Source of the DNA: Leucoraja ocellata
Taxonomy: Eukaryota
Direction of reading: 5' to 3'
Assembly (NCBI GenBank): GCA_036785375.1
Contig: JAWMAR010000415.1
Span: forward strand, 186,001 to 250,000
Length of the DNA stretch: 64,000 nucleotides
Shown: positions 1,364 through 50,577 of the stretch, piece by piece
Numbering within the stretch: the stretch's first letter is position 1
How the letters are laid out: each line of letters opens with the position of its first letter
Made by a program: the position numbers and the translations under genes
The notes under the pieces: model-generated
What the model saw: only the letters and a program-made list of their open reading frames with translations
Told to the model about the DNA's origin: nothing
Database searches by the model: none

Positions 1364-2235
1364 CCACAATCCTCATAATATTTGTCGAATGGGCCCTCTG
1401 ATATTAATATAAAGCATCTGTAAATAATCTTTAATTTTGAATCAAATAGAATAACCCCCTCTAGAAGTTCCTGATACTCCTCTTCTGCCCAGTTCAAAGT
1501 GACTATGTCCTAAACAAGTCTCGTCCATTGAGTGACTACTTGCAAATCTTGCTTTTGCCACAAGGAAAAAAAAAGGTTCTCTTTTTCTTTCGTTGTGACA
1601 ATCAATGCATAAGATTGAACATCCATTTGTTAATTTAATAAAAAAGATTTGGGCGATGATTCAAATCTAGAATATTAGTTTCCCAGCATCTCTGGAGAAA
1701 GGGAATAGGCGACGTTTCGGGTCTGAACCTTTTTTCAGACTGAAGAGTTCCTACCCGAAAATTCAACCATTCCTTCTCTCCAGAGATGCTGCCTGGTCTG
1801 CTGAGTGACTCCAACATTTTGTGTTTATCTTTGGCATAGTCCAGCCTCTGCAGTTCCTTCCTACACAGTAGTTTCCCAATTTGACGAGGAAGCCGAAGAA
1901 CCAAAACCCTGACTGTAAGAGGCAGGGAGCCATGATGCAGTTCTATGGGACTTTTGTTAGGCCGCATTTGAAGTATTGCATGCAATTCGGGTGAACCTAT
2001 TACAGGAAAAATGTGGAGCATTTTTGAGAGGGCGCAGAGGAGGTTTAGAGGGATTAGAGGGTTTCAGCTACAAGGAGAGGTTGGATAGGCTTGGATTGTT
2101 TTCTCTGGAATGTTGGACGTTGAGGGGAGACTATAAATGTATATAAAAATTATGAGAGGCATAGATAGGGTAAACAGTATGTCCCTATGTTATTAATCAT
2201 TGTGTTCAATAATAGCAACACAAGTGTATGTAGTT

Positions 2236-2463
2236 ACAGCTTCTTTCCGGCGGCTGTCACTCTACTAAACAACGTACCTCGGTGACTGCCAATCACCACC
2301 CCCCCCCCCCCCCCCCCCCCCCCCCCACCCCGGACACTTATTTTTTTTTTATTCAAATCGTCTGCTATGTCGCTCTTCAAGGGAGATGCTAAATGCATTT
2401 CGTTGTCTCTGTACTGTACACTGACAATGACAATTAAAATTGAATCTGAATCTGAATCTGAAT
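2236..2463 (+). mobile_element. 3' end of a Rex1/Babar-type LINE with poly-C tract and (TGAATC)n tail
   Basis: SFFPAAVTLLN-like RT C-terminus, poly-C at about 2297-2331, tail TGAATCTGAATCTGAATC. Confidence 0.55.
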
Positions 2464-3274
2464 TTATTTGAGTAAAAATTCAGTGTTCCTGCTCTTGAAC
2501 ATCCATAAGATTGAAGTTGTTTGGTTCCTCAGGAAACATGGCAGCAAAAACTATTGTTTTCATTGCGGACTTTGACCATTGACCGAGCTGAAATTCTTTG
2601 CACTTGTTGCATAATAAATGGGAGTGCAATTTATTGTAGATAAGAATTATTTCTGAGTTCATTAGTAGTGATCACTGTTAACAAAAATAGCACTATTAAA
2701 TTTGAGGCTTGCCTCCTATTTCCTGAAAAATAATTTTCACTTGTCTGTTATCAGCAATTTATTTTTGTGGTTTGACAAGATTTTCAGTCCCTTGATGGCA
2801 TCATCTGGGTCTGATTGTAGCTTCCACGTTGCATTTCATCCTATAGCTTAATTGTATTTACCTTGTTAACAAACACTTACACATCTGATTTGCAACGTTT
2901 TGAACCAATTAATTCTTCACCTGGGTTTGACTCCCTAGGAGCACTTCTACTTAATCTGTTTTTCCAGGTTTCTCTTTTATTTTAATAACCAGCACAGCTC
3001 ATTGCAGTTCGTGGGATAATTGAAATCCATCCACCCTCATGTAACTTACCCAGAAATGTTGTGCAGTCCAGCACCATAAGTTCATAAGTGACAGGAGAAG
3101 CATTAGGCCATTCGGCCCATCAATTCTACGCCATTCAATCATGACTGATCTATCTCTCCCTCCTAACCCCATTCTCCTGCCTTCTCCCCATAACCCCTGA
3201 CACCATAATCACTTCCCTCCCACTGAGAGAAGCAAAGCTTGCAACTCTGTAAAATATTGTTACTTAACTTAATG

Positions 3275-3925
3275 GTACAAGATACAAGATACATTTATTT
3301 GTCACATGTACCAATTGGTACAGTGAAATATGTGGTCACCATACATCCATCGGATAAAAAAGAACACAACACACGATAGACTCCAACATAAAACATCCCC
3401 ACACAGCAGAATCAAAGTTTCCCACTGTGAGGGAAGGCACCAAAATACAGTCATCTTCCCCTGATGTTCTTTGATGTTGTTCTTTGATGCTCACCCTGGG
3501 GTGGGGCCACCCGAACCCTCCGCAGTCGCCGCTACGGGTGGCCCGATGTTCAGGCCCTCTCGCCGGGATGGTGGAACTCCGACGTTGGGACGGGAGAACA
3601 ACCTCAGCGGCTTGGAGCTCCGAATCGGCCACTTCCTACCGGAGTCCGCGGCTTCCGAAGTCCACAGGCCGCGCTATGCGGAGATTCACGCTGGCGGCCC
3701 TAGGCAAAGGGATCCCAGGACTCCGCGATGTTGAAGTCAGCGCAGCCCGCGCTGGAAGCTCTACGAACCACAGCTCTACGATGTTGAAGCAGCAGGCCCA
3801 ACACTCCTGAGCTGAAAACGGCGATCCAGGTTGGCATCGCCCGCTCCGCGATGAATCCGGCGCTGCGCCGCTGCTGCTGAAGCTTTGGTCCGGGCCCCGC
3901 CAATCCAGTTGGTGGGCCATACATA
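3275..3925 (-). mobile_element. Non-autonomous GC-rich retroposon copy
   Basis: (TACAAGA)n tail plus TTTATTTGTCACAT at the left end, then a CpG-rich body; no real ORF. Confidence 0.45.
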
Positions 3926-4422
3926 CTTCCTCTGGCAGCTTGTTGCATACACCCACCACCCTCTGTGTGAAAAGGTTGCCTATCAGCTTCCTATTCATTT
4001 TTTCACCTTTTCACCTTGAACCAATACACTTTTGTTCTTGGAGACACAAGGCACTGCAGGTAATGGAATCTTGAGCAAAACAAAGTGCTGGAGTAACTCA
4101 GTAAGTCAGGCCTCATCTCTGGAGGATATGGACAGGTGCGATTCGGATCTGAACACTTCTTCAGACTTGGGCAAAGGGCGCCGACCCAAAATCTCACCGA
4201 TCCATGGCTCCCATGGATGTTGCCTGACCTATTGAGTTACTCCAGCACTTTGTGTTTCCTGTTAGTTCTTGATTCTCCTACCCTGGGAAAAAGACTGTGC
4301 ATGAATCTTATTTATTTTTGCTTCATTGTTTTATACACCTCTATAAGATCGCCCCTTATTCTCCCGCACTCGAAGGAATAAAGTTTGAGTCTGCCCAATC
4401 TCTCCCTAAAGCTCAGGTCCTC

Positions 4423-4771
4423 GCACGGCGTCGGGCGGTGACGTAATCGCGCAATGTCACGCTGGGCGGTGACGTCATCACGCAACATCATGCCAGCGGT
4501 GACGTCATCACGCAACGCCATGCGCTAGGCATACGCCATCAAGACGCTGCATACGACCGCAATGCGCCTGCGTGCCGACAGGCCGTTGGCGCGCAAAGAT
4601 TTTGGCCACTGGCAGAATTTCGGCGCCCCAAGCGATGTCGGGACCAGCCCCGCACAACTCCACGCTTCTAAGTGGGACCGGCCCCGAGCGGCCATATGGT
4701 GCCCATACACCTCAAGCGACCACGAGGTTGCGTAATTTGCGAGCCAAGGTCGCGTAAGTGGGACAGGCCCT
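4423..4771. mobile_element. Harbinger-type MITE, truncated at its left end
   Basis: Ends in TAAGTGGGACAGGCCCT followed by TAA, the same terminus as other copies in the window. Confidence 0.7.
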
Positions 4772-5939
4772 TAATAGTCCACCAGTACTTGAGAAATGCA
4801 GATTTAAAAGTAGTTTGTGTGATTAAGATGTACAGAGAAACCTGGTATCAAGGGTCAGACATTTGTGTGATTACTCTTTGGACTTACAGTAAATCAAGAG
4901 TATACTCCACACCTGGTTTGCTACATTAAAGAATTGCCAGAGACTTTATTTTTGCATGACCTCTCACTGCCTTTTGCATAATTACTAGCAGGGATGAGCT
5001 CTTTAGCCAAACTAGTACTTGCATTCCAGGCAGCCCATCTTGCTTCTGTGGCACTGCAGTTAATTCACAGTAGTATTGTGCTCATAATAGAGGCACTTTT
5101 GGCCTTTATTTCCACTGCAGCTGCAATGTTTATAAATTAAATGCACGCTGCAAGTTCCACTATCTGATCATGATGGCACATGCAGGTCAAATCTATGAAT
5201 TCATATAGAAATAAATTCAAAATAGAACTCGCTTTTGTCAAAATACAAGGCCTGTGCTCTGGCATTATGATCACCTGCGTCACAAAAGAACTGCATGCAA
5301 AGTCTTCTTGCATATCAAGTAGACAAAACAGCGTAGTATTAACAGACCCAGGTGAACCTTCAATCATCAAAGCCCATTAAAGTGCAGCAACTGTATGATT
5401 GGTGCTGAACAATTAAATACCTATTGGGAGGATGATTCTTAATGAACATTGCGATTCTCAATATCTGCAGTTGAGTGCATCTGAGCAATTGACAATTTTG
5501 AGGCGTTTCATTTCATCTTTAGTTTAAAACGTTGTGATAATTTTTTGACTTCTGAAATACTCCCATCATAAATCCCAAGCTTCAGACAATTTCTAAACCA
5601 TGAGAATTCAATTCAAGAGAGCCATTTATTCTTTGTGTGTGTGCGTTCCATTCCAGAGAATCCTCACATTGCTGCCCTTCCCCTTGATTGCTCATGTTTT
5701 AAATCATCTCCTGGCCTTTACACAGCAAACTGAAATGATGTATTTTGTTTCCATTTAGGTCTGAGTTTCAAAAAAGAAAAAAGAATGTCAGTGTATCTAA
5801 TAACACGGGTATAAAAATTGTAGCAAATTAATAAAACTGCTCAATAGACACAGGAAGCAGTGAAGATATAAGCGGTGCTGGCTCGAAGGGCTGAATGGCC
5901 TACTCCTGCACCTATTGTCTATTGTCTAAGATGTGTAAA

Positions 5940-6290
5940 ATGTGATTAACAACTTTTACAAACATGATACAAATGAATGAAAGATATGCAAAAAGCAACA
6001 ATGATCAAGGAAAGGTGGAGCCCACAATGATCCATTGTTGGCTGAGGAGGAAGGTGATAATGAGTGATATAAACAGTAAAACTCAGCTGCACAATAGTGA
6101 AACTAGTACGATGACTAGGGTGGGGAAGGAACGGAGAGAAAGAGGATACAAGGATTACTTGAAGTTAGAGAAACACATATTCATATCATCGGGTTGTAAT
6201 CTGCCCAAGCAAAATATGAGATGCTGTTCCTCCAATTTGCGTTTTGGCCTTGCTCTGCCAATGAAGGAGGCCTAGGACACAAAGGTCAAT
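5940..6290 (-). mobile_element. Penelope-like element 3' fragment (GIY-YIG C-terminus plus UTR)
   Basis: Minus strand reads RKLEEQHLIFCLGRLQPDDMN..FSNFK*; homologous to 28500-28740. Confidence 0.7.
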
Positions 6291-7076
6291 ATAGACAATA
6301 GGTGCAGGAGTAGGCCATTCGGCCCTTCGAGCCAGCTGATCATCCCCAATCAGTACCCCGTTCCTGCCTTCTCTCCATATCCCCTGACTCTGTGATGTTA
6401 AACATAGTGAAATACTGTAAAAGTTCACTGCGTATAGTGAAGTGTGCATGATTTTAATTGGAGAATTAATTTCTCAAACAGTGCACCATAAAGAAGACAC
6501 TAAAATGCCATTGAATGACCAAGATGAGCCATATTCGGGGATCAGAATTGATCAGATTTGATGGGGTATCTTGCTCATCAAGGTCACCCTCCCGTACTTT
6601 ATGCCTATAAATCAGCCTACACACAATTTTTAAGAATGGAACCCTGGGAACTGCCAGTTCATGTATATACACCGTAACTGAATACATTTTCGGTGACAAA
6701 ATAGCGAGCTAGTTGTGTCCCTTTCTTGCAGAGCTAGAGAAAAGTGTTCAAACCTCACCTCGGATGCGGTCTGTGTGGAGTTTATATGGTTCATTGTGAC
6801 TGTGTGGGTTTCCTCCAAATGCACCGTTTTTTCCCTCATCCCAAAGGCATGTGGACTTATCGGTTGGAGATGTCAGCATCTGGAATCTTGTGCAAAAAAC
6901 AAAAACAAAGTGCTGGCTGAATCCAAAAATAGGCTGCCATAAATTCCCACTTGAATGAGTGATATAATCTGGGGGCGTTTATAAAGATGAGAGGAGAGTA
7001 AAAAATAAATTGGACTCTTGTTGGATAGGGTAAATGGATTCATGACACAATAAACAATAAAGGGCTGAATAGCTTG

Positions 7077-7580
7077 GGGCAGCACAGTGGCGCCACGGTA
7101 GATTTACTACCTTACAGTGCCAGAGAGCCGAGTTCAGTCCTGACCTTGGGTGCTCCCTGTGGCAGCGTGGGTTTCCTCCCATGTTGCAGAGACCTGCAGG
7201 TTTGTGGTTTGGTTGGTTGGCTGCTGTGGGTTGTGGGGGTTCTGTGGCATTGCTGGTTCTATCCTGCACACTGATTTGTCCCTCGTGTGTGGGGTGGAGC
7301 TGATGTTCCAGTGGGGGACACGCGGTCATAGGGCGCCTGGGGTCAGTGTCTGGTCTCTGGTGCTGTGGGGCAGTGGTTTACGGGGTTCATGGCGTTCCGG
7401 AGGCCCGTTGGGCTGCAGGTCTCCACGCCTTTGCGGTGGGGAGGGGGGGGGTGAGAGGAACCATTTTGGTAGTTCTATCCTACACACTGTGAATTGTCCC
7501 TAGGATAGAACGAGTGTGCGGGTGTTCGCAGGTAAGCACGGACTCGGTGTTTCCATGCTGTGTCTCTAAACTAAACTAAG
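7077..7580 (+). mobile_element. HE1/V-SINE (tRNA-derived head, CR1-derived tail), interrupted
   Basis: GGGGCAGCACAGTGGCG head, B-box-like GAGTTCAGTCC, V-domain GCGTGGGTTTCCTCC and (CTAAA)n tail. Confidence 0.65.
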
Positions 7581-8054
7581 CAACAATGCTTCAAAAACAC
7601 TATCCAAATGTGTAGTTCTCAGAATTATTCAAAATGTTTTTAATTGTACAGTAGTAAGGACAGTTGAAGAACCAGAGAAACATCAATGTACAGCACCTGT
7701 ATCTCTAAAACTAAACTAAACCAAGAATTGCGCCATTCACTTAGTAGTCATTCCGCGAAACAACAAATTCGGTCTACAACAGATTCGAACCGTCCGCTAT
7801 GACTGAAATCCGTTATAAAGAGGTCCATTATTGCGAGGGTTTGTTGTATTCTCCTTCCAAGTTTTTGTATGTAAAATAGAAACATAAAACATAGGTGCAG
7901 GGGTAGGCTATTCGGCCCTTCGAGCCTGCACCGCCATTCGATGTATGTTTGTATGTCCTAAAATGTGCAATGTTTTTGAAAGGAATAATAAAATAGTTGC
8001 CATCGTTTCAATTGTAAACAAGTAAATAATTCAGTCTTTTTTTTCTTTTTTCAG

Positions 8055-8109
8055 TCCGGCTCCATGACAGCATATCTGAAGAAGGGTACCATTATCTAGT
8101 GTTTGATCT
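8055..8109 (+). CDS. CAMK2D: CaMKII delta kinase-domain exon 4 (VRLHDSISEEGYHYLVFDL)
   Basis: 55-bp exon between a polypyrimidine-TTTCAG acceptor and a GTAAGT donor. The translation matches CaMKII, and 55 bp is the conserved size of this exon. Confidence 0.96.
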
Positions 8110-9256
8110 GTAAGTACTTTTCCTCATTCAGCAGTTATTATTCTTTCACTCTTTGCAGTCAGGTGAAATCAATTTTACTTCATTACTTGCCCTAGTGATG
8201 AACATTTAGGATTTGTGCTACTATTGTTTTGTAACTTGGGGGGGGTGAACAAGTACACAGCCCATTGTCAGCTACATATAGGTACAGCAAGCAGTTTGGA
8301 AGGCAAATAGTATGCTGCCCACAAGGATTGGTAACATGAGTAAAATTATCTTATTGCAATTTTTTTATGTTTTGGTGAGATAGTACCTGGATTATTTAGC
8401 ATAAAAGTCTATACTCTTTGTAAGAAAAGATATACGCGTGACAAAGGGACTGCAACAGGGATGTGCTGGGTTGATTGGAGATGGCAGGAGCCCATCTTGT
8501 TTTATTTGCGCACAATGTTATGTAGATAACATCAAACAACTTAATTTTTGTTATAGAAATTTCTAGAAACGTGCAGCAAGTTACTCAGCATCTGTGAAAA
8601 GAGAAACGGAGTGAATGGTTCAGGTTGAAGATCCTTCATCACAACTTCAACCTGAAATGTTAATTTTGTGTCTCATTCCACAGAAATTGGATAACGTTTT
8701 TCCTCCCTTGATTACGGAGTTTGGGTGAGCTCCTAAACATAGCAATGAGCAGCAAACTGCATTCCAGGATGCCTGGAGTGATTCTGAAGCTTGGAAGCTG
8801 AGAGAGACGCTAAATATGACCTGCCAGAGAAAAGCAGGCAAAGCACATATGTATGAGGTTGCATTTTAGATTGCAAGAGGCATGTACGTGAGGATGCAGA
8901 ATGGGGATTAAGATTTGTGATTAGTTCAGGTGTCAGAGGTTATGGGGGGAAGGCAGGCGAATGGGGTTAGGAGGCAGAGATAGATCAGTCATAATTGAAT
9001 GGCTGTGTAGACTTGATTAGACTTGATTAGGTCATGCCTAATTCTACTCCTATTTCTTACGACCATATAAGTGTTGTCTCTTTAAATAGTAAAGTTTCAA
9101 GAGAAACAAGATTAATGAAACCTTTTTGTTTCTGTGAGCAGAGTACTGTCATCATTTAGACCAAGTGAGATTGTAAATTTCATGGCAAGTGGACCTTGTG
9201 TGTTTTGCACCACATTTGGGAAATGTTGTGCTGCAGGAAAAAAAACCATGCAACTT

Positions 9257-9494
9257 CCCTGTCCCACTTAGGAAACCTGAACGGAAACCTCTGGAGACTT
9301 TGCGCCCCACCAAGGTTTCCGTGCGGTTCCCGGAGGTTGCAGGTGGTTGCCAGAGGTTACAGGTAGTGGAAGCAGGTAGGGAGACTGACAAAAACCTCCG
9401 GGAACCACACGGAAACCTTGGGTGGGGCGCAAAGTTTCCTTTAAGGCAGAGTCTCCAGACGTTTCCGTTCAGGTTTCCTAAGTGGGACAGGGGC
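9257..9494. mobile_element. Harbinger-type MITE with long (about 80 bp) inverted repeats
   Basis: CCCTGTCCCACTTAGGAAACCTGAACGGAAAC... mirrored by ...GTTTCCGTTCAGGTTTCCTAAGTGGGACAGGG. Confidence 0.75.
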
Positions 9495-12143
9495 CTAAGA
9501 ATGTTGCAGTGATGTCCAGAGTGAGATTTTCTGTTTGGCACAATTGGGTGAAAAAATTGTTGAGCTAATTCTTAAACAGACACATTTTGTTGGGATTTCA
9601 TTAAGGAAATTCTCTATCTGCATCCCAGCAATTTTCATCATACATAGATGTCGAATTTATCATTAAAATGTTTACAAACTGCATGCCGTCATGCTGGTTG
9701 TTACAATCTTTCATTGATGGTATATCAAAACTTATAAGTGCATTGTAACACATATACATATCAGAATACATTGAAGAAGTTAATGTACACATTTAATTAT
9801 CACTTTGAAAAAGGCAGTTCCGTAGACTCCAGCATCTGCAGCCTCTTGTATCTGGATTTTATCATTTGTTTTGTTGAACTGGTTACTTAAATCAAAATGT
9901 TTATGTTTGAAGAAAGAAACAATGAAGGGGTGTGTCTTGGAGGGGGTATATGCATCGTTGATTGTAAAGTTGCATCGTTGGTTTCCAAATATCATTGTCA
10001 GAACAACATAAGCAAAACCTCAAATGAAAACTTGGGAATTTCTAATATAGAAGGATTTGCATGTATAAAGCAAGTTTCATAACTTTACAAAGTGCTGTTG
10101 AACAATTGAAGTAATTTTAATTAAAATAATATATTTGTTGGCAACAAATGTTCACACAGTAAGACTCACAGAAAGCAATGAGGTAATGACCAGAATAATC
10201 CTTTTGTTCATTCTGGATGAGCAGCTCCCCTGGGTTGAGTTGATACAAAGTTAATACATGACAAAACGAGACAATTGGAAGGCAAATGGTGCAGACAAGA
10301 TATGTGCAATAACTCCTCCAGAATTACCGCAGGACTGGTTTATGCTCGATGTAGGTTCAGATTTGTTTATACAAAACTATTTTACAAATTGGCTGGACCA
10401 GACCCGACCTAATTTACAAAATGTCTTCACTGGTGTCCATGCTGGCATTGTACTTTGGTGGCAGCAATTCTACTATTTGAAACATATTGAATCTGCCCAG
10501 GTATTTGTCTTTGTGTTGACCTTTATATTCCTACCACCAGCTTGTTTCCTGGCAATAAATGAACATTGCATAGCAACCCGAGTACATGCTGATTCACTGG
10601 CATCGTGCCACTGAATACAAGTGGCTCTGCTACCATAAAACTTGCTGTGTTCCTTTTATTTACTAACTAAATCAATACTACTAAAGGAAAAATGTCAATT
10701 GGAGAAAGCCCAAAGCTGACAGGACTCCAAGGGATTTGCCATCTGGTATCAAACTGTCTGTCAGTATTGTACAGGACAGTATAACATCATTCAGGCAGTC
10801 CACTAAATTGAGTTCCTGCTGAGGTTTAGTCACTCAGCAGCTGATGAGCTAAAAAGCATCATCTGACAGGCTGTGCTCTACCTTACCTTTAATTCCTGTC
10901 AGGTTAATTTAAAAACATCTCAAATCATTTGAGAGCTGAATTTTATTTCACTGACTAAAGGTTTAGGGAACTAACCCCTCCTGAAATAAAGTGAGTTCAA
11001 TTACAATTACGCAAATCAGCTGTTAACAACTTTCAGAATGTGTGCTTTGATATGGTTATCAAAAATAAAATGTTTACAGTTGGGCATAATTTGTCATTTC
11101 TATACCTCCAAATCAGTTGACAACTTGTAAAGCCACATCTTGATGCTGGAGATGTTGGAAATATTAAATATGTGCACCGTTGTCACCATTTTGAAATCTC
11201 ATAATGAAGACTGAAGAAGTTCATTGCAGAACTCCATGAATTTGATGAGGAGGTTGTATGATGGGATTGATTACACCATACACAAAAATGAAGGGCTTGA
11301 AAACATCAGATCTTGTGTGCTATAACTCCTCTTTATGCTGGGTTCTTACTTTTTTAATGATACTTATGAATATGTGGGTAAAATATTGTAGCACTTTGTA
11401 CCCAAGTTTGCAACCTACCCTAAAACTTGTTTCTAAGATAGCGCTGATGATGACCGAGATTATTTCATTTGATTATTTCCAGAAATTGCTTTAAATAAAT
11501 AATGGATTGTCAATCGAAAAGCGAAGAATACGCCTTAGTTTTCCATAAAATGCTTTATTTTACCTTAAAATCTTCCACGTGGGTTATGTATAAAGCATTT
11601 AACATTCCTAGATAACACGCCGGCCAGAAATGTTCCATCATTACCCATTTAGCTTACTATAAGCTGCCTGGGGCTGAAGGTATGCCTGTGTAATGGTCTT
11701 CTGCTTTATCACTTTTTCCTTTTGAATGTTTGTAGTTAAAAAGCAAAATGAACTGCATCCAAAAGTAAACATGCAAGGTAGTAGGCTTTCATCAATTCCA
11801 ATGATTTGTGTGAACACTCGATTGCCCGTTTTGTTACGCAAGGTGTAAACTGCAACAGTGTATCCGATGGAGGACCTTAAGGAGAAAATATAGGCCAATA
11901 TGACCTTATTTAATTTTAATAATTTGTGGACAAGATTTTCATTTGAACTAATCTGGTACCTGAGGCAAATGAGATTGAGATTGTATTGTAAACATATTTT
12001 ATAGATTTAAGAATAAGAATAATAGATTTTATAGATGTCAGTTAAAGTGCCAGAAACAGTGCATTAACGTGCAAAAATTGCCTCTCCATTAAAATCGGCT
12101 GTTGAATGTCAAATTAATTGAAATCAGCATATCAAACATTAGA

Positions 12144-13510
12144 TGGCCTCATTGTCCCAAGGAATTGTCCCCTCCGCTTTCAAAACGGCTGATGTTACAC
12201 CAATCTTAAAGAAACCTGGTCTTGATCCCTCTCTCTCATTAACTACCACCCAATCTCAAACGTCCCCTTTCTTTCAAAAACCCTGGAGCGTATCGTTGCG
12301 TCGCAACTTCATTCCCACCTCCTTGCATATAACCTACTTGAACCCCTCCAATCTGGCTTTCGCCCCCTCCATAGCACAGAAACTGCTCTCCTCAAAGTCC
12401 TCAACGACCTCCTCACCTCTGCTGACACCGCCACTTCAACCTGGACTTCCACTGTTATGCTGACGACACCCAAATCTACCTCGGCACCAAATCCCCCCAC
12501 AACCCCTCCCTCTCCCATATCAACTCCTGTTTGTCAGCTATAAAAACCTGGATGCAACATAATTTCCTCAAACTCAACAGCGATAAGACAGAATTCCTCC
12601 TCATAGGCTCCAAAGCCACACTCAGCAAAATCAATAACCCCACTCTCACCATCGACGGCACCACTGTCTCCCCATCTCCCTAGGCCCACAAACTTGGCGT
12701 GATCTTTGATTCCACCCTCTCCCTTGAGCCTCACATCCGCCATGTCATTAAAACCTCCTTCTTTCATCTCCGCAACATCGCCAAACTCAGACCCTCTCTC
12801 ACACCTCCCGCTGCTGAAAGACTCATCCATGCCTTCATTTCCTCCCGACTGGACTATTGCAACTCGCTTCTCCTTGGCATCAGCTCCACCTACATCAACC
12901 GACTCCAACTGGTCCAGAACGCAGCCGCCCGACTCATCACCCACACCAAATCCTGGAATCACATCACTCCAGTCCTCAAACAACATCACTGGCTTCCCAT
13001 CCCCCACCGGATCAACTACAAAATCCTGATCCTCACCTCCAAAGCCCTCCACCATCTGCCCCCCCCATATCTCACTGACCTCCTCTCCCCCTACCAACTC
13101 TCACGGTCCCTCAGATCCACATCAGCCGATCTCCTCTCCATCCACAAGTCCAACCTCCGCAGTTTTGGGGACAGAGCCTTCTCCAGGACAGCTCCCAGGC
13201 TCTGGAACTCCCTCCCCCAACTGATCCGCAATTCCGGGTCCCTCACCATCTTCCAGTCCCGCCTCAAGACCCATCTCTTCACCTCTGCCTATCCTTAGCC
13301 CCACGTCCCCCTCCCTTTTCATCTGTGCATTAATTGCCTCATATTGTGTTTTGTATTGAATTCTGTCTTTACTTTGTGTACTAGTCATGTCTCTACTATT
13401 TATTTCATTCCCCTTACATGTTTTTCCTCTACCTGCAAAATGTTTGTAAGGTGTCCTTGAGACTCTTGAAAGGCGCCCATAAATAAAATTTATTATTATT
13501 ATTATTATTG
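12144..13510 (+). mobile_element. L2-clade LINE, 5'-truncated RT region
   Basis: YADDTQIY motif and a 199-aa ORF at 12699-13298 (SRLDYCNSLL, GDRAFS, RLWNSLP, LKTHLF). Ends in AATAAA plus (ATT)n. Confidence 0.9.
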
Positions 13511-15149
13511 TGGTTGCAGCAACAATTTCCATTTATATAGCAACAAAAAACATAAAGTGCTGGAGTTACTCAGCGGACGATACAGCAACTGACAGATGAA
13601 GTTTTGGGACTAAACCTTGCCTCAGAATTTAGCATCTCCAGTCTTTCATGTCTCAATCAGGTGTAGGGAGTTAGGCCACAGATCAATTAGGATTTTGTTA
13701 AATTGCAGAAGAGAATAAGTGGTCTTCCATATTCCTTTGTGCAGTTGAAACCAATTACAGCAAGTTGCTGGGGAAGGCTGATTACAGTTTTCTGGTAAAC
13801 GTGTCATAGTTAAGTTGGAGGTGTTGAAATGACTAGTCCTTGAGCTTCCTTGGTTTGCATTTAGCATATTGGATGAGGGGCTGTGTTCTATTCTCATTGT
13901 TGCAGCTATTTTTGAGATACAAATGTGACTGTCTAAATTATTTTGGACAAAGACATAGTTTTGCACTATATAGATACATGAGATACACTAGAATCTCATG
14001 TATCTATATACAATTGCATTATAGAATTAAAGTTTGAATTCAGCATTATCAATGCATATCCAAGCTCGATATTTGTATATTCCCTCTGTATTTTGAGTGT
14101 ATCTGTATAGTACATTCAATGTTAAGCTTTATGTTAGATGCTGCGTTTCACCTTGAGGGCCAATTTCATCAAACAATAATCTGTGGTTATTGTTACCCTC
14201 ATTCCCACAAGCATAAAATTGCTCTTTATGAGATAAAATGCATAAGGGATGGTTGTCAACATCTAAAATATTTTCATACATTCTTTTTAAAAAATTCCAT
14301 GATAATGTAAATTTTGTGGATATTTAGTCTTCACGTGAGTGAAGCAAGGAGGCATCAGCTGCGTGGAACAAAAGAACCATCTGTTTATGCTAGGCAGATG
14401 CAGTTGAAATGCATGCGTGGGTTCACTTCTTAAAATACATTACTTGACATACGAAATGCTTACTAACCTAATCTTCCTCATTTCACACTACTGTCACTTT
14501 AAAACTGACGAATGAAGTGTGTTTTTCTGATGGGAACACAACTATATTTAGTTTTGAGGCAGAGAATACCTAGCAAAAATGCTCAAGCTCTCTTGATATT
14601 TGAACTAAATAAGAAAAGATAATATGCTTCCACGTTGGAATGCAAGTTTAATATGAAGTTTACAATGTTTTAATATATACCAGTAAAGGTAAACGTGTCA
14701 TAGTTAAGTTGGAATATATGTTATTTATGAGTGCCATAGTAAGACATTAGTTTTTATAGAGTGCTGGAACAAAGAATATTACAACACTGGTCAGTTGAAA
14801 AGACATAAAGATTAATGTTACGGAGATATTAAAGGTGACTAAGAGAGTCAATTTTAGCACTTTATTCAAAATGAGGAAATCTGCAGTCGAGATAAACTCA
14901 AAGACCTAGAACTGAGCCCCACTTTAGCATTTGAATGATGGGTTGCATATTCATGCAGGAAGTTTCACTACTGCTACTCAGGAGAGTTTAAGCTGGAGAG
15001 ACAGGGGGGTTGGACCAGCCTAGTAGGTCAGCGTAGTTGGTCAGGATGATAAAAAGGTGGAGGTTAGGACCAGTAAATCTCAAAGGAAGGACAGACAGGG
15101 AGAGTTGAAGGAATATGTTGAAGCTGATGGGCTGAAGTGTGTTTTTTTC

Positions 15150-16030
15150 AATGTTAGGTCTCGGTAGACTGGAGAATAGCTAATGTTGGTCCTATATTTA
15201 AGAAAGGAAGTAGAGAAAATCCAGAGAATTATAGGCTGGTGAGTTTCACGTCAGTGGTTGGGAAGCTATTGGAGAGGATTCTTGCGGATAGGATTTACTC
15301 CCATTTGGTAAAGAATGTGTTAATTGGGAAGTCGGCATGACTTTGTACACTGCAGGCTGTGTTTTACAAACTTGATGGAGTTTTTTGATAAGATGACAAA
15401 TGATATATGATATGATATGCCATTTATTGTCACTATACATGTACAATGAAATTAAAAGCTGCTCGTACTCAGTGCATACATATAATTTAGTACAAAAAAA
15501 CAAGAAACAGAAAACAAAAACAGAAGGGAGAAGGGGGGGGGGGGGGGGGGATAGGTGCACAATTCTGCGGCACTATATACATATATACAGATGGAAGTCC
15601 AGGTGGTTGATGAGGGTACGGTGGTGGATGTTGTCTACATGATTTTTAGAAAGGCATTTGATAAAGTTCCCCATAGCAGGATGATCCAGAAGATTACAAT
15701 GTACGAAATTAAGAGTGACTTGGTCATATAGATTCAGAACTTACTGATACAAGAGAGGGTTGTGGTGGAAGGACAATATTCAGGTTGCAAGTCTGTGAGC
15801 AGTGGAGTGTGTGCTGGACTGTACTGGGTTCTCTGCTGTGTGATAAACATAAATGACTTGAATGTTACAGTAGATGACTCGTTGGTAAGTTTGCAAATGA
15901 TACCAAGATTGCTGAGCTCACGAACTGTGTGGAAGGCAGTCAAAGTATAGAGCAGGATATTGATCAGGTACAGAAATGGCAGATGGAGTTTAGTCCAAGC
16001 AAATGTAAGTAGTTTCATTTTAGGAGGTCC
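15150..16030 (+). mobile_element. Degenerate CR1 LINE RT fragments
   Basis: DWRIANVGPIFKKG, NYRLVS and KAFDKVPH-like motifs with stops and frameshifts. Confidence 0.75.
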
Positions 16031-17134
16031 ATAGAGGATATGGGGAAAAAGCAGGATATGATTTTGGATGATCAGCCATGATCATATTAAAAGGCGGTGC
16101 TGGCCAAACGGCCTACTCCTGTACCTTTTTTCTATGTTTACATGTTTCAATGAACACAATACTCCAAACACAGCCTCACCAACATTATGTACAACTGCAA
16201 CATAATATGTTAATTTCTATTATTGTGGCCGATGAAAGCTAATGTGCCAAAAGTCTTCTTTACCAGCCTCGCTTTCTGTGATGCCACTTTCAGAGAACTA
16301 TCTACCTGTACTTCTAGATCCCTCTGCTCCAAAACACATCTCGGGGTCCTACGATTCATTGTGAAGGTCCTGCCCAGGTTCGACTTCATAAATGTAATAC
16401 CTTGTACTTATCTCCATTAAACACCTTTAACCATTCAATATTAATTTTTATTTGATAACTTTTCTGTCATGCACCTTGTACCAATTTTATTCATTAAGAT
16501 GTGATCAGTACATCTGCAATGGTAACGTTTATAGGTGTGCCTTCCCCATTTCCCTTGACATCTACTTTCCAAAGCAAGCATAGAACATAGAAAAGTACAG
16601 CACTGCTACAAGCCCTTCAGCCCTCAATGTCTGTCGAATCCAACACTTATCTGCCTGAACATAATTCATATCCCTCTTTATTCCCTGCATATCCATGTAC
16701 CTATTCAAAAGTCTCTTAAATGGCATTATCATACCTGCCACCACCACTCATGGCTGTGTGTTCCAAGGACCCATCATCCTCTGCGTAAAAAAACTTTCCC
16801 TGCACATGTCCTTTAAACTTTATCCCACTCACTTTAAGGCAATGTCCTCTAGTATTTCCAAGTCTGTCCAACCTTTCCCTATATCTAACATCCCCTAATC
16901 TAGGCAGCATTCTGGTAAACCTCCATTGCACTTTCCAAAGCTTCCACATCCTTCCTGTAATGGGGCAACCAAACCTGCATGCAATACTCTAGATGCAGCC
17001 TAACCAAGAGTCATATGTCCCAGATAGAAATTCTTACTTGCTGCAGCACAACAGAACATGTAATATAGTACACTGTAAACAATATGATAAATGAGAGGGA
17101 GAAAAAAATTCAGTGTGTATGTATACACACATAC

Positions 17135-17917
17135 GTGTGTGTGTGTCCGTCCGTCCGTCCGTGTGTCCGTGTCCGTGTCCAAAAGGCTCCTATTTCCAAA
17201 AAGCAGCCCGACTGACGTGACAATGCACTCGCAAGCCTAGACGGGACAAGCACGGAGATGAAGTCCTGCACTCGAGCCCAAGCGGCGGCAGAGCTGACAG
17301 ATGGAGTCTACAGCCAAGGCCAGCCCGAGTACATGAACCAGGCCGAGTTCCAGGCCCTGGCGCTGCTCTACGACCTGGGTGGGTCCCGGGGCAAGGAATG
17401 GGAGTGAGGGGAGGAGGATGGGGAAAATGAGGAGGAGATGGGGTGGGGAGTGGGGTGATAGCAGGGAAGGGGGGTTGTGGAAGAGGGAGATGGGGAGGGT
17501 GGAGAAGGGAGATGCCCCCTCCCTATCTACCCTCAATCCCACCCTCTCTACCCCCCTCCCTCTCTACCCTCCCCCCACTCTACCCCTCTCCCTTTCTCTC
17601 TCTACCCCTCTCCCTTTCTCTCTCTACCCCCTCCCTTTCTCTCTCTACCCCTCTCCCTTTCTCTCTCTGCCCCTCTCCCTCTCTACCCCCTCCTCCTCCC
17701 TCTCTACCATCCCTCCCTCTCTACCCCCTCTCCCTCTCTAGGGATTGAAGAGGGAGGGTGAAGAGGATGAGGAGGGAGTGCTGGGGGATGAGGAGAAATG
17801 AGCCGCACCTGCGCAGTTGGGGGCTATGCGTGAGTGGTGCAATATTGCGTTGGGGAGCGGGTGAGTCGTGGAATCTTGTAATGGGGAGCAGACGCAACAG
17901 GTCTACACTTGGTATAG
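17135..17917 (+). mobile_element. Non-autonomous Helitron copy (5' end unclear)
   Basis: 3' end GACGCAACAGGTCTACACTTGGTATAG|T matches the hairpin+CTAG end of the 40226-41427 element. The two copies share internal sequence and a (CTCTCTACCCC)n tract. Confidence 0.65.
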
Positions 17918-18719
17918 TAACTCCCTGAAAGTGGCATCGCAAGGATAGGGTGGCAAAGAAGGCATAGATAGGATAGGGTAGACAGTCAGAACTTTTTTTA
18001 GAGGATGGAGAAATCAAAGGCTAGAGAGCTGGCTTTAAGATGAGTGGGCCAAAGTATAAAGGAGATTTGCAGGGCAAGGCTTTTTTTACACAAGGGGTGG
18101 TGAGTCCCTGTGATGTGCTGCCGGGGGTATTGGTTAAGGTAGATATAATAGTGGCATTTAAGACATGTTTAGATAGGCACATGGATATGCAGGGAATGGA
18201 TGGATATGGATTATGTGCAGGCAGATATGATTCGGCCTTACATCGTCGACGGCACAGATGTTGTGGGCCGAAGGGCCTGTTCTTGTGTTGTACGGTTCTT
18301 TGAAACAAGACCTAAAAAACCTAAACAATGTTTGTCTTGCAAGTGCACAGTGGGCCAGGACATGCCTAATAACATTCACAGTGTGTAGTTGACACCTGGA
18401 CTTTGCTTCCATTAGTTTGCTTCAAACATGCTTATGTGTCCAGCCCCTACTACAATCAGTCTGAAGAAGATTCCAATCCATAACGCCACCTATCCATGTC
18501 CTCTAAAGATGCTGGCAGACCTACATAGTTACTCCAGTACTTTGTGTTATGCTTATACACTTTACATACAATGTAGGTAACATAAACATAACTTCACAAT
18601 GTAGACGTGGCCTTCGTCATTATTGGAGCCCAGTGTTAGTAACCTGCTTCAGATTGAGCCCTGAGGTTCTCATGTGACCTCTAACCCAAGGTTCTTTAAT
18701 GCAGTTCCATCCTATTCAT

Positions 18720-25254: not shown

Positions 25255-28200
25255 TATCATTAATGTTTTTTATCAAATAGACTTCATCGGAACCCAATCC
25301 TGTTATGTTCTAATTATAAAATATAAACATAACAACGCCAAGTTCTGATGAAGAGGCTTCAATCCAAAACTGTTTTTCCCTCCACAAGTGCTGCCTGGCC
25401 CTTTGAATGGTTCCAGATTTTCTTTTCGTTCATTTCAGATTTCTAGCAGCTTCGGTTTATGGATTTTGGTTAAGAAAGCAATCAAGAACAGTCTCATCCA
25501 ACTGGAAAGCAGAAGCTGGAGAAAGATAGTGTGGCCAACTGTGTCAAAGGCTACAGCAGGTTATGAAGCATGGCACAGATGTACAGAATGTCACTTGTGA
25601 CAATAATGAAGCTATTTGTTTGCAAGCATGTAGGCGTTGCTGGGACAAGGAATTAGCAATGAATGCACATTTAAAGACTGGAATGAATGGAAAGGTTGAA
25701 GTACGAACAGTTCCAAAAAATGAAGGAGTAGAGATGATAAGGGATTTATTCTTTGACGAGGATGGTCAGTGGAGAAGGAAATCACATGATCACTCTGGCA
25801 AGGGTACTGGGATCTGAAATGCACCACACATAAGTTAAACCCATTGTTATCCAGCCCTGTGTAGTTGAACTCTAGTAGTGCTGCTGCATTGCAGCAAGAA
25901 ACAATGTTGCCTTTGCCTATATCCGCTGCCAATCTCATCGTCTGACGCCAATTATATCATCATTGGTATTTCTCTTCAATATCTGCATAGATCCCTCTGT
26001 TCCTCTTTCTCTCACTCTCTCAAACAAATGAACACATCAGGGCTAATTCTACTAAAAATAGCATTCTCTCCAGAATTTATTGGAGGGAGTTCTAGTGGGG
26101 GTTGCATTTGTGAATAATTGGGACAGTGGCAATTATAAATGGAGAATTTGTTAAACAAATTCCAAATGGCCAGTTGACATGCAACATGCACAGACTAGTA
26201 CTAGTATTCACTGACAAATCAATTACTGAAGCGGTTTCTTACTAAAGCCACATATAAAGTGGAATTTGATGGATTTGTTTTGTGGAAAATCATCTGGTAG
26301 GATATATGGTGAAATTCCAGAAAACTCAACCCTTAAGTAGATAACATGATTGAATACAGTTTCATTGCATAAGCTGTAAAGTCTTGGCATGTTCAGTAAC
26401 TTCTATTCATAACAGGGAAATTAAAAATTAGTTGATTGCTTTCAAAATTGAGGCAAATTCTCCTGACCTTTGTCTTTATCTCCAGGGTGCATGCCTGCTC
26501 TCTCTCTTCTATCCTTTAGAGTCCCTGGGGTCTAGTGATTGCTATTTGCATAATGAATAGTGTCAGATAATGTCACATAGGTTCATGCTTAATTGGAAAT
26601 GAATAATTCCATAATTTCTGACATTCAGAATATGGAAGGTGCAGGCTTCAGTTTTTAATAATTTGAGGCTGAAAACAATAGCGGAGAGTAGCTGTGACGG
26701 TTTTCTTTGTATCAACTAGAAATTGCTTTTTACGGAAGCGCTGTTGGAGAATGTGCCATGGACTTTTCACTCTTCAGTGTATGGCAGGTTTTATGTTGCT
26801 GTGAACTGCCTTGAACCACGTTCCCATGTGGCAAGGAATGCCTGCAGCTCCACAGCAGACGGCAAATCCATACTGTCAGTATCCCAAAAGCGCATTCATA
26901 TGTTTGGGCTATGCTTAAGTCGTACGTTCATGAGCTGGGGAGGACCTGTAATTGTCATTTTGGCATCCTGAAGAAACCTGAAAGGATACACTGGGGAGGC
27001 TAATCAATTTGTCAAGCCATGAAACTAAATAGTGTACCAGAATAACATGGCCTTGTTATTAATGTAATCAACAGTTATGTTGCTTGCAAGTAATTATATA
27101 GTGAACTCATTCAGTCACGGTAAGGCTCACAGGGCTATCTTTTTCTTAACCATAACTTTGTTTTTCACTGACTTTGCAAAAGGAAGAAAGTGGAACTGAC
27201 AGAAATCACTTGAGGACTGCAGCATCATAAATAAATTATCACTGCATGGGTTGCAGTTATACTAGTGGTTTATGTAGCTTTTTAATCATTTTTTCCTGAA
27301 ATCTTGTTTCTAGAATCTGCGGAATTCATCACTGTACCAAAACAAAGGCGTAGAAATTGAATTGCTTAATACTGCTTGCTTCAGTGTTACATTATAGAAA
27401 AAGCACCATGGTATGAAACCATATTATTTTAATTCATTCGGGACATTTGAACAAGAATTTCACTGAATATGAAATTTGCATTTATGACATGACCTCTGCA
27501 TAAGCAGCTCATCAAATTGTAATATTTCCAATGCAAAACAAATGGTAGAGCTTTGTGGGAAACATTAGGATATTTATTTTTCTGGGAAAAAGTCTATATG
27601 CATTCATCCTATCTATTTCCCTCATGATTCTATGTTTCTAAGATCTCCCCCAGCCTCCTGTGGTCCAAGGAATAATGTCTGCCCAAATATAAATTTAATA
27701 AGCAGCACTTATTCTAGTAGTTGTATTGACTGCGAATCGTTGGTTTTGGAATCAGAATCATGCAGACAAGTTATCACTCGCAGTCCAGAACAACGCCTGG
27801 TGTTCCCCAATCAATGACAAGCGTCTCCATCCACAGCACGACCTGCAGGTTTCCTTTGGCACCAGCACATCGGATGTTGCATTTTAATTTGTCAACTTCT
27901 TTCTTGGTAGATTCCTTATCAGTAATTAATGATTATGAGCTGGACACGTCTGCACTATGTTTACACAAGGTCGCGACGGAATGTTACTACAGAATGTTTA
28001 CATTGTTATTCCTTGGTGACTGGTCACCCTCTATTTCCCATACCATCTCATTAATTCTTTCCTTTCAAGGAATCACTACTCAGTGTATTTACAACCTAAA
28101 CCTCCTCTTACACCAAACTATAGCTCAAGCCCTTGAGTCCTGACATCACTCTCAGATGGACACAAAATGCTGGAGTAACTCAGCGGGACGGGCAGCATCT

Positions 28201-40225: not shown

Positions 40226-41427
40226 CTAGACCAAATGGGACCCATTGGGTCTCGTCCCCCAACGCGCTCGGGGGGCGCACGGCTTCACAGGGGAGGGCTG
40301 GTCCCCAAACGCAATATTCCACCACTCATCCATAGTTCCCAATACTCACCACACCCTAGAGCAGAAGGGGTTAGAGAGGGAGGGAGGTGCAGAGAGGGAG
40401 GGGGGGTAGAGAGCGAGGGGGGGTAGAGAGCGAGGGGCGACAGAGAGGGAGAGGGAGGGGGTAGAGAGGAAAGGGAGTAGAGAGGGAGGAGGAGAATGGT
40501 AGAGAGGGTGAGGGGCAGAGAGGGAGGGAGAGGCCTTACCCCATCTCCCTCCTCATTTCCCTCATCCTTCTCCCATTCCCTGCCCCAGGATCTACCCAGG
40601 TCATAGAGCAGCGCCAGGGCCTGGTTCTCGTACTCGACCCGGCCCTGGCTGTAGACCCAGGCTCGTCCTTGCTTCTAGCGACAGCCTCCTGCCATCAGCT
40701 CAGCTGCCGCCTGGGCTCCAGTGCTGGTTCCGACTTCACCGTCCCTGACCCTGGACCCAGGCTCGTCCTTGCTTCTAGCGACAGCCTCCAGCCGGGATCT
40801 CGGCCGCCGCCTGGGCTCTAGTCCAGGCCCACGCTCATCCTTAGTTCTAGCGATCAGCCTCCAGCCATCAACTCAGCCGCCGCCTGGGCTCCAGTGCAGG
40901 TTCCAACTTCACCGTTCCTGACCCTGGACCCAGGCTCGTCCTTGGTTCCAGCGGCGGCGGCTTTATTGGCCCCAGTCACGGCCCCATCCTAAGCCCCGGG
41001 CTCGGCTCTCACTGCAGCTCGAGCACCAGGCTCGGCTCCAGCCGGGGCCCGTGGCTCCACCCTCTCCACTAGATGTCGGGCGCCGGCATCCGCCGCACGA
41101 GCGCTGCAGTGCCCCTCCCTCCCGGAGTGTCCCATCCTGCCTTGCGTGTCCATTGTGTCAGGGTTTTTTTTCCGAATTGGCTGAATTTTCGGGCTGTTTT
41201 TAAAACTATAAAGGATTAAAAAGTTCAGAAATATAGGTGGGAATGCAACGGAAAGACGTTTATCGCCTCGAGGGGGGAAATGTGAGTAGAATGTGTGATA
41301 AATTGGGGAGGTTGTAGCGTAGCGTTTGTAAGGAAATGAGAATCAAGCAGATTGTGCCCAGATGACACACACCCACACACCCACATATACATACACACAA
41401 ACAAGATGAGAGTTTTAGTTATATAGA
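40226..41427 (-). mobile_element. Complete non-autonomous Helitron (1.2 kb)
   Basis: Minus strand begins A|TCTATATAACTAAAA and ends with a GACCC-AAT-GGGTC hairpin followed by CCATTTGGTCTAG|T. AT target site with no TSD. Confidence 0.85.
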
Positions 41428-41924
41428 TAGAAGTAAAATAATAGCAATGACAGTATGCATGTAAAATTAATCAAACTACTACATTCAGTTGTAGTGCTGG
41501 TAACTCTGGTGTTTTGTGGCTTCTGTGGTGGCCAAAAGCAACCAAACACCATGGGTGACAAGAAAGATTTTTTCTGTTAAATAGTTTGTTGATTTTGCAT
41601 GGATGAAAGAGGGAACCAGACTTAACCAACAACAATCAGCTTAAGTACAGTAATTGGCATTCTCTGTTTATTTTGTTGAGTTCAGGAATCCCCTGTGGCC
41701 ATTCCACTTGAAAACATATTGAAAACATATATACCCTTTTAGAGAGGGAAAATGTGAGAAGAATGTGTGAAAATTCACTTGAAAAATTGGCTGAGTTTCT
41801 CCGACACTTTTGTATACCCTTTTGGAAACTGTTCAAGGGATGGGGGGGGGGGGGGCAGTGGGGATAGCAGCAGCAACAGCAGTCAGGTCTATGGGTCAGA
41901 GGGGAAGGGTCAAGTCAGGACTGA

Positions 41925-45976: not shown

Positions 45977-46066
<90 letters not shown>

Positions 46067-49558: not shown

Positions 49559-49631
49559 TCATTGTATACAGCAGATTCTAGAAAGTGTAAATCATTGTCA
49601 CCTTAATGGCATAGTTCACAGGGACCTGAAG
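49559..49631 (+). CDS. CAMK2D: CaMKII delta exon 6, variant a ([24 protein letters not shown])
   Basis: 73 bp, CTTCACAG acceptor, GTCAGT donor. Contains the catalytic HRDLK motif; [12 protein letters not shown] is the delta-type sequence. Confidence 0.96.
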
Positions 49632-50504: not shown

Positions 50505-50577
50505 TCATTGCATTCAGCAGATCCTGGAAGCTGTGCTACACTGCCATCAGATGGGTGTGGTCCATCGAGACCTGAAG
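50505..50577 (+). CDS. CAMK2D: CaMKII delta exon 6, variant b ([24 protein letters not shown]), mutually exclusive alternative
   Basis: Second 73-bp exon with the same phases and an open frame. TACTAAC branch point at 50473-50479, GCAG acceptor, GTGAGT donor; alpha/beta-type peptide. Confidence 0.93.

Follow-up and report, generated by a model that had tools for sequence, protein, structure and literature searches.

The element at about 17181-17917 of the window (the whole stretch of 64,000 nucleotides from Leucoraja ocellata analyzed here) belongs, with high probability, to a non-autonomous Helitron family whose cargo is part of the host gene SAC3D1, and it is a decayed copy truncated at its 5' end; the SAC3D1 piece was likely acquired by a single genomic capture in skates and then spread passively by related RepHel elements. 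SAC3D1 has been described as a PCID2-SEM1 partner in a TREX-2-like complex that releases RNA from UAP56 (PMC13391367). In the history that we propose, the SAC3D1 piece would have come from the genomic DNA of the skate lineage in a single event, by a composite (end-bypass) transposition reaching from a Helitron 5' end inside exon 1 to the 3' end of a second Helitron in intron 1; internal deletions would have produced medium and short forms, the short form would then have taken a second pair of ends, and RepHel enzymes of related Helitrons would have copied the family passively.

The window copy belongs to the short forms and shows an additional deletion; it has lost the 5' TC terminus as well as about 250 bp that follow the TC, its remaining 5' part adjoining a TG/TCCG microsatellite (Table 1). 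Its terminal hairpin is weak (−1.1 kcal/mol), and its GTGGGT is a decayed variant of the family donor G/GTAGGT in which the A at +3 is lost. The window copy is most likely a dead relic.

Table 1. Features of the Helitron copy and of the surrounding CAMK2D region (window positions).
Feature	Position	Strand	Remarks
CAMK2D exon upstream of the element	8055..8109	+	ends in phase 2
Helitron 5' subterminal remnant, short-subfamily type	17181..17241	+	alignment with 18 sister copies; blastn
Captured SAC3D1 exon 1, rest of the skate-specific repeat region	17242..17307	+	matches L034 1371-1429 and L069
Captured 3' end of SAC3D1 exon 1 (YSQG...LYDL-G)	17308..17378	+	family-wide deletion of ~290 bp before
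Splice-donor-type site GTGGGT (family form GTAGGT), putative SAC3D1 intron 1 donor	17379..17384	+	
Purine-rich stretch, common to all subfamilies	17385..17514	+	first ~30 nt travel with the cargo
CT-rich minisatellite within the element	17515..17740	+	families D7, D9
Helitron 3' subterminal region with decayed hairpin 17888-17906, end ATAG/T (family CTAG/T)	17741..17917	+	
Second cargo-bearing Helitron, complete	40226..41431	-	TC start, hairpin and CTAG/T end
CAMK2D exon downstream of the element	46000..46065	+	
Further CaMKII exons	49559-49631, 50505-50577, 59934, 63239	+	

The captured exon end can be read in an unbroken open frame in the window (YSQGQPEYMNQAEFQALALLYDLG, translated from 17309-17380 on the + strand), and its last G, at 17378, is directly followed by GTGGGT. 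A sequence-only reading of the same DNA had pointed to a strong GC3 codon bias, to a donor-like site right after the fragment and to a resemblance to SAC3D1, and all three observations stand: 22 of the 23 codons end in G or C, the junction lies at 17378/17379, and longer copies match SAC3D1, the window peptide itself being identical to the SAC3D1 of the skate Amblyraja at 19 of 23 positions (pairwise comparison, E 3e-10). Searched alone, the peptide matched neither Pfam nor PDB, and the SAC3D1 identification therefore rests on the longer copies together with the pairwise match; an Rfam search over 16900-18100 gave no match either. What had to be revised is the beginning of the cargo. The prefix S*QME had been counted to the SAC3D1 reading by a shift of one base, with a cargo start at 17292, but this is wrong, as 17242-17307 represents another, more upstream part of the same exon that was joined to 17308 by a deletion of about 290 bp (positions 1440 to 1734 of copy L034 are missing between window positions 17307 and 17308). 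The cargo start therefore lies near 17242, and the repeat region that 17242-17307 matches was found only in skate proteins among the SAC3D1 proteins compared.

The longer copies identify the cargo. When the genome was searched for the Pfam domain SAC3_GANP (PF03399), eight matches were obtained, of which four were GANP-like exons on contig C35 that do not match the window sequence, and the other four were longer-insert copies of the element that scored above the cut-off. A protein translated from one such copy (P0001, with an X at the stop) had skate SAC3D1 as its best matches (65% and 62% identity, E 2e-39 and 3e-36), and these were the sole matches among the candidates (2/588); in PDB, it aligned to residues 143-238 of human SAC3D1, with the alignment ending at the same motif. 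The best match of the cargo is thus SAC3D1 rather than GANP, LENG8, or a transposon protein. Pooled, the longer copies cover residues ~26-286 of the 446-residue skate SAC3D1, and they contain a repeat insert and a two-residue insert that are both restricted to skates among the SAC3D1 proteins compared. With the skate proteins as a guide, a majority peptide was built from 19 selected copies of the long and medium forms; it is identical to Rhinoraja SAC3D1 at 100 of 105 positions and to the Amblyraja and Leucoraja proteins at 97, while three other rays share 74-79 positions with it, and sharks and chimaera 45-57. At sites where skates differ, the majority peptide mostly agrees with the other lineage, and in the tree it falls among batoids and outside the Amblyraja-Leucoraja pair, with deeper forks open. 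On the basis of these identities and of the shared insertions, we infer that SAC3D1 was captured in the skate lineage, possibly before the split of the two skate families.

Some further observations concern the SAC3D1 proteins and individual copies. The repeat insert in exon 1 of the skate proteins (P0002-P0009) is lineage-specific and of variable length, and skates and other batoids have lost a loop before the AVKE motif that is present in sharks. Two element copies, L069 and L042, were considered as the parent SAC3D1 locus and rejected, as they contain stops and shifts and have no exon 2 nearby. L042 and L044, both on contig C8, are end-less relics that keep the host residues just before YSQG, which most copies have lost, and their repeat region resembles that of Amblyraja; they could be the earliest form or a second capture.

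In the copies, the homology of the cargo stops at one and the same codon, mostly before G/GTAGGT, and none of the scored genome matches goes past the LYDLG motif (0/95 scored beyond residue 287 of P0003, and 0/150 beyond residue 96 of P0010). After the Leu, every skate protein has Gly or Asp, whose codons start with G, as an intron in phase 1 would demand, and a Mobula SAC3D1 isoform omits a stretch of 45 residues that spans the boundary point; both fit an intron at the LYDL-G point. A 20-nt motif just 3' of the donor has 344 matches in the genome, and the cargo lies upstream of it in 28 of the first 30, which indicates that this motif came with the cargo; the first ~30 nt of the purine-rich stretch are likely the start of SAC3D1 intron 1. 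The cargo would hence end at the donor of SAC3D1 exon 1 and appears to continue into intron 1. The parent gene was not found in the assembly with an exon-2 protein query (0/9 candidates), with P0010, or with a degenerate pattern, a result that applies to these queries and does not mean absence, and it was also not found in 88 kb beside five long copies. Since the parent gene was not found, the position of the SAC3D1 intron has been deduced from the points above. In run X3, one loose end (agreement 0.7, two contigs), when read in frame and compared by eye, resembles the SAC3D1 residues that directly precede the cargo (6/9), which hints weakly at the existence of the parent gene.

That the carrier is a Helitron, as had been proposed, is borne out by its ends. 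Among 18 aligned sister copies, which were read by eye, the 5' TC terminus is visible in 12, with an A before the TC in 11 of these 12; the second copy in the window has the TC, and the copy at 17181 lacks it. The 3' end of the family has a hairpin and a terminal CTAG, in agreement with the canonical Helitron terminus CTRR that has a GC-rich hairpin about 11 nt upstream, and the CTAG is followed by a T in 31 of 34 ends (of the three exceptions, two do not represent ends of the element) and in 14 of 14 ends of another set. The family is thus inserted between A and T, as is typical of Helitrons, and copies also occur head-to-tail (L049, L052, and L174). No empty target site was found, and L002, the only allelic copy detected, carries the insertion too. 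RepHel-encoding Helitrons are present in the genome, with 120 matches among 150 candidates and frames of up to 1,851 residues, and a domain check of the frame of one element gave Helitron_like_N and PIF1. The last ~37 nt of the window subfamily, and with them the 3' end of the window copy, are the same as in the RepHel elements on contigs C2153 and C175, and those on C168 and C94 are nearly so (six fetched); a RepHel element on C51 ends like the long and medium cargo subfamilies, and the 5' ends of the family resemble RepHel elements on C21 and C51. Ends are therefore common to the family and to RepHel-coding partners in the same genome, and between such ends the cargo is found in many copies dispersed through the genome, which the sequence-only reading had named as support. 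The RepHel Helitrons on C2153, C175, C168, and C94 (L099-L106) are 93-98% identical, have long open frames, and form head-to-tail arrays of multiple ends; they have probably been active recently. The second cargo-bearing Helitron of the window, which lies antisense in the same CAMK2D intron, has internal duplications of the cargo and combines a 3' end of the long-class type with a short-class 5' end.

Among 68 copies that were classified by rough regular expressions, with many ends unscored, the short form accounted for 30, the medium form for 29, and the long form for 9. Most long and medium copies share a pair of ends that differs from the pair mostly found in short copies, and as the three nested cargo lengths are thus associated with two pairs of ends, the cargo was shortened stepwise and the ends changed. 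In the 3.44-Gb assembly, a first look with a 101-bp stretch from the window gave 1,154 candidates, and the 40 that were scored were 88-100% identical; the copy with 98.8% identity, L002, shares the flanks and is therefore a duplicate of the window locus and not an independent insertion. An 18-nt motif from the exon end has 648 exact matches (control 0), which is a floor for the copy number, and 4 of 30 copies that were chosen via the other, post-donor motif contain it. Scaling with these two motifs gives a total of about 4,900 copies (binomial range 2,100-17,000), so that the family has at least several hundred and likely a few thousand copies; in similarity-chosen copies, the 18-nt motif is found in 21 of 29 and 13 of 37, which would give 900-1,900 copies. 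The cargo occurred in none of forty arbitrary 10-kb stretches, which fits ~5,000 copies and sets an upper limit near 26,000. Many loci come in near-identical pairs, and the CAMK2D region itself is present twice (C415 and C88) at ~99% identity; as duplicated haplotypes inflate the counts, the haploid number may be lower by up to half. Local clusters were seen at C18:4772722-4794741, with five copies within 22 kb, and at C22:5.78-5.93 Mb.

From the pooled majority, the 68 copies differ by a median non-CpG distance of 5.9%, the window copy having 6 changes in 101 positions, and judged by this sequence divergence the family is likely tens of millions of years old. Every long copy contains stops or shifts. 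Over the last 23 codons, decay proceeded without a codon-position bias (6.4, 6.1, and 4.2% non-CpG changes at positions 1, 2, and 3). Mid-exon changes (6.1, 4.9, and 9.3%) lean to third positions, and this lean may be due to GC3 decay or to subfamily structure.

As to the way in which the SAC3D1 piece entered the element, we consider composite capture by end bypass slightly more probable than all other routes together, with the copying of the cargo into an existing, broken Helitron during double-strand gap repair, as filler DNA or by template switch, being a less probable but serious competitor. Gap repair would account for the fact that copy L069 has neither a hairpin nor a CTAG between the Helitron 5' region and the cargo, and that the outer ends are both ordinary Helitron ends; moreover, the cargo starts in the middle of an exon, and end bypass would thus demand an insertion into coding sequence. 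However, composite capture between two Helitrons has been recorded in bats (PMC4224331), read-through upon a missed hairpin has been reported from experiments (PMC4778049), and a cargo of a 5' exon with part of the first intron is the usual product of end bypass. In addition, L069 and L070 continue in purine-rich sequence without any Helitron 3' end in 20 and 10 kb, respectively, as a relic of read-through might.

Two other origins can be set against the end-bypass reading. The cargo could derive from SAC3D1 mRNA, as a retrocopy or cDNA piece, with the following GT being due to chance or belonging to the Helitron, and it is true that the host intron was not seen and that all recognizable cargo is coding. 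Yet, the homology stops at one codon, directly before a near-consensus donor, no trace of exon 2 was detected in the 245 scored matches or by direct search, and the association of the post-donor motif with the cargo argues against its being general Helitron backbone, which together make an mRNA origin very improbable. A reverse flow, in which transposon sequence entered the skate SAC3D1 gene, would explain why the odd repeat insert of skate SAC3D1 is also found in the element, but the shared stretch includes SAC3-domain sequence that is conserved in sharks, teleosts, and human; for the domain part, this idea is already refuted, and as a whole it has a negligible probability.

The sequence-only reading had placed the element in sense orientation in CAMK2D, and this holds, as + strand exons flank it; the assignment to CAMK2D is based on the exon at 49560, which best matches CaMKII delta. 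We take the flanking upstream exon to be the fourth by the usual numbering, so that the element would lie in intron 4, which extends over 37.9 kb. The exons at 49559-49631 and 50505-50577 are tandem homologous kinase-domain exons and likely mutually exclusive alternatives. It had further been suggested that the window copy could act as a cryptic exon. The sense orientation and the retained GT would permit this, as would 7 of the 32 AGs upstream of the donor that would give an open in-frame insert, and the donors of the bat element HelibatN3 are reported to splice (PMC4778049). Nevertheless, the acceptor anatomy speaks against it: the seven AGs have only 6-10 pyrimidines among 18 positions, compared with 11-16 at five real CAMK2D acceptors, and the best upstream AG (12 of 18) shifts the frame. 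An in-frame insert would, moreover, sit in the kinase domain and be read in a frame other than that of SAC3D1, the donor lacks the A at +3, and the cargo has no promoter like the one that drives the HelibatN3 traps. Among 29 copies chosen independently and read by eye, 22 still have the GT, a proportion that fits neutral decay. Since no good acceptor precedes the window copy, and no usable promoter was found upstream of the donor, we regard a role of this copy as a cryptic exon or an exon trap of CAMK2D as very unlikely and predict that the copy is spliced out with the CAMK2D intron.

On the level of the whole family, it is conceivable, though unlikely, that thousands of intronic copies of the SAC3D1 exon end, with its donor, seed new exons in the genomes of skates, or RNA that could pair with the mRNA of a factor for RNA export. 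Among 15 candidate proteins of 62-198 residues, none came from element copies, and among fusions of 199-2000 residues only two SAC3D1 clusters were found. The two small, possibly RNA, runs yielded 1 and 0 contigs, too few to be informative. The Logan protein P0010 starts with the junction of the medium deletion and runs through SAC3D1 exon 2; it could be an assembly join or a real chimera, and it hints at an occurrence of the family in another skate data set. If such seeding occurred, P0010 would be a real chimera of element and host and not an assembly join. Two DNA-type runs contain copy L069 letter for letter and may be the source of the DNA analyzed here. In a third run, which has another organism label, 29 of 30 bins of L069 were covered, which may indicate that more than one species has the family.

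Capture of a first exon together with its donor by Helitrons is known from bats and Xenopus, and what appears to be new is the SAC3D1 cargo and the lineage of cartilaginous fishes. The sequence-only reading knew of no chondrichthyan case, and our literature search likewise found none in the papers covered, neither for SAC3D1 in combination with Helitrons nor for gene capture by Helitrons in cartilaginous fishes, while an unremarked repeat-library consensus may exist. In Myotis bats, HelibatN3 is described as having captured the first exon of NUBPL with the donor and the start of intron 1, and as having about a thousand copies (PMC4224331, PMC4778049). The skate family resembles it as a non-autonomous Helitron with a host first exon, a donor, and the putative start of intron 1, and it is likely as numerous or more so, with a different gene in a different lineage. 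Whereas HelibatN3 contains a promoter, a 5' UTR, and six codons and gives rise to chimeric transcripts, the skate cargo extends over as many as ~260 codons and should not code for protein; because neither a promoter nor an ATG was taken, exon-trap activity like that of HelibatN3 is not expected. Heli1Xen1 of Xenopus laevis, for which 19 fragments in 64 insertions with at most 17 copies each are reported (PMC12001565), is likewise a vertebrate Helitron with 5'-biased coding fragments between ends that are shared with an autonomous element, but it has many fragments in few copies, whereas the skate family has one fragment in hundreds to thousands of copies. In comparison with the SAC3D1 gene, the cargo is orthologous to the N-terminal two thirds, without start and exon 2 and with stops or frameshifts in all copies examined, and it is not a gene.

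For skate genomes, this means that hundreds to thousands of SAC3D1-like false matches and donor sites can mislead annotation, and the copies of the family may be the reason why the parent gene is hard to assemble. Helitron gene capture is hereby extended to cartilaginous fishes, with a coding cargo of unusually high copy number and a readable history of long, medium, and short forms and of an end swap, and this makes the family suitable for tests of capture models as soon as the parent locus is available.
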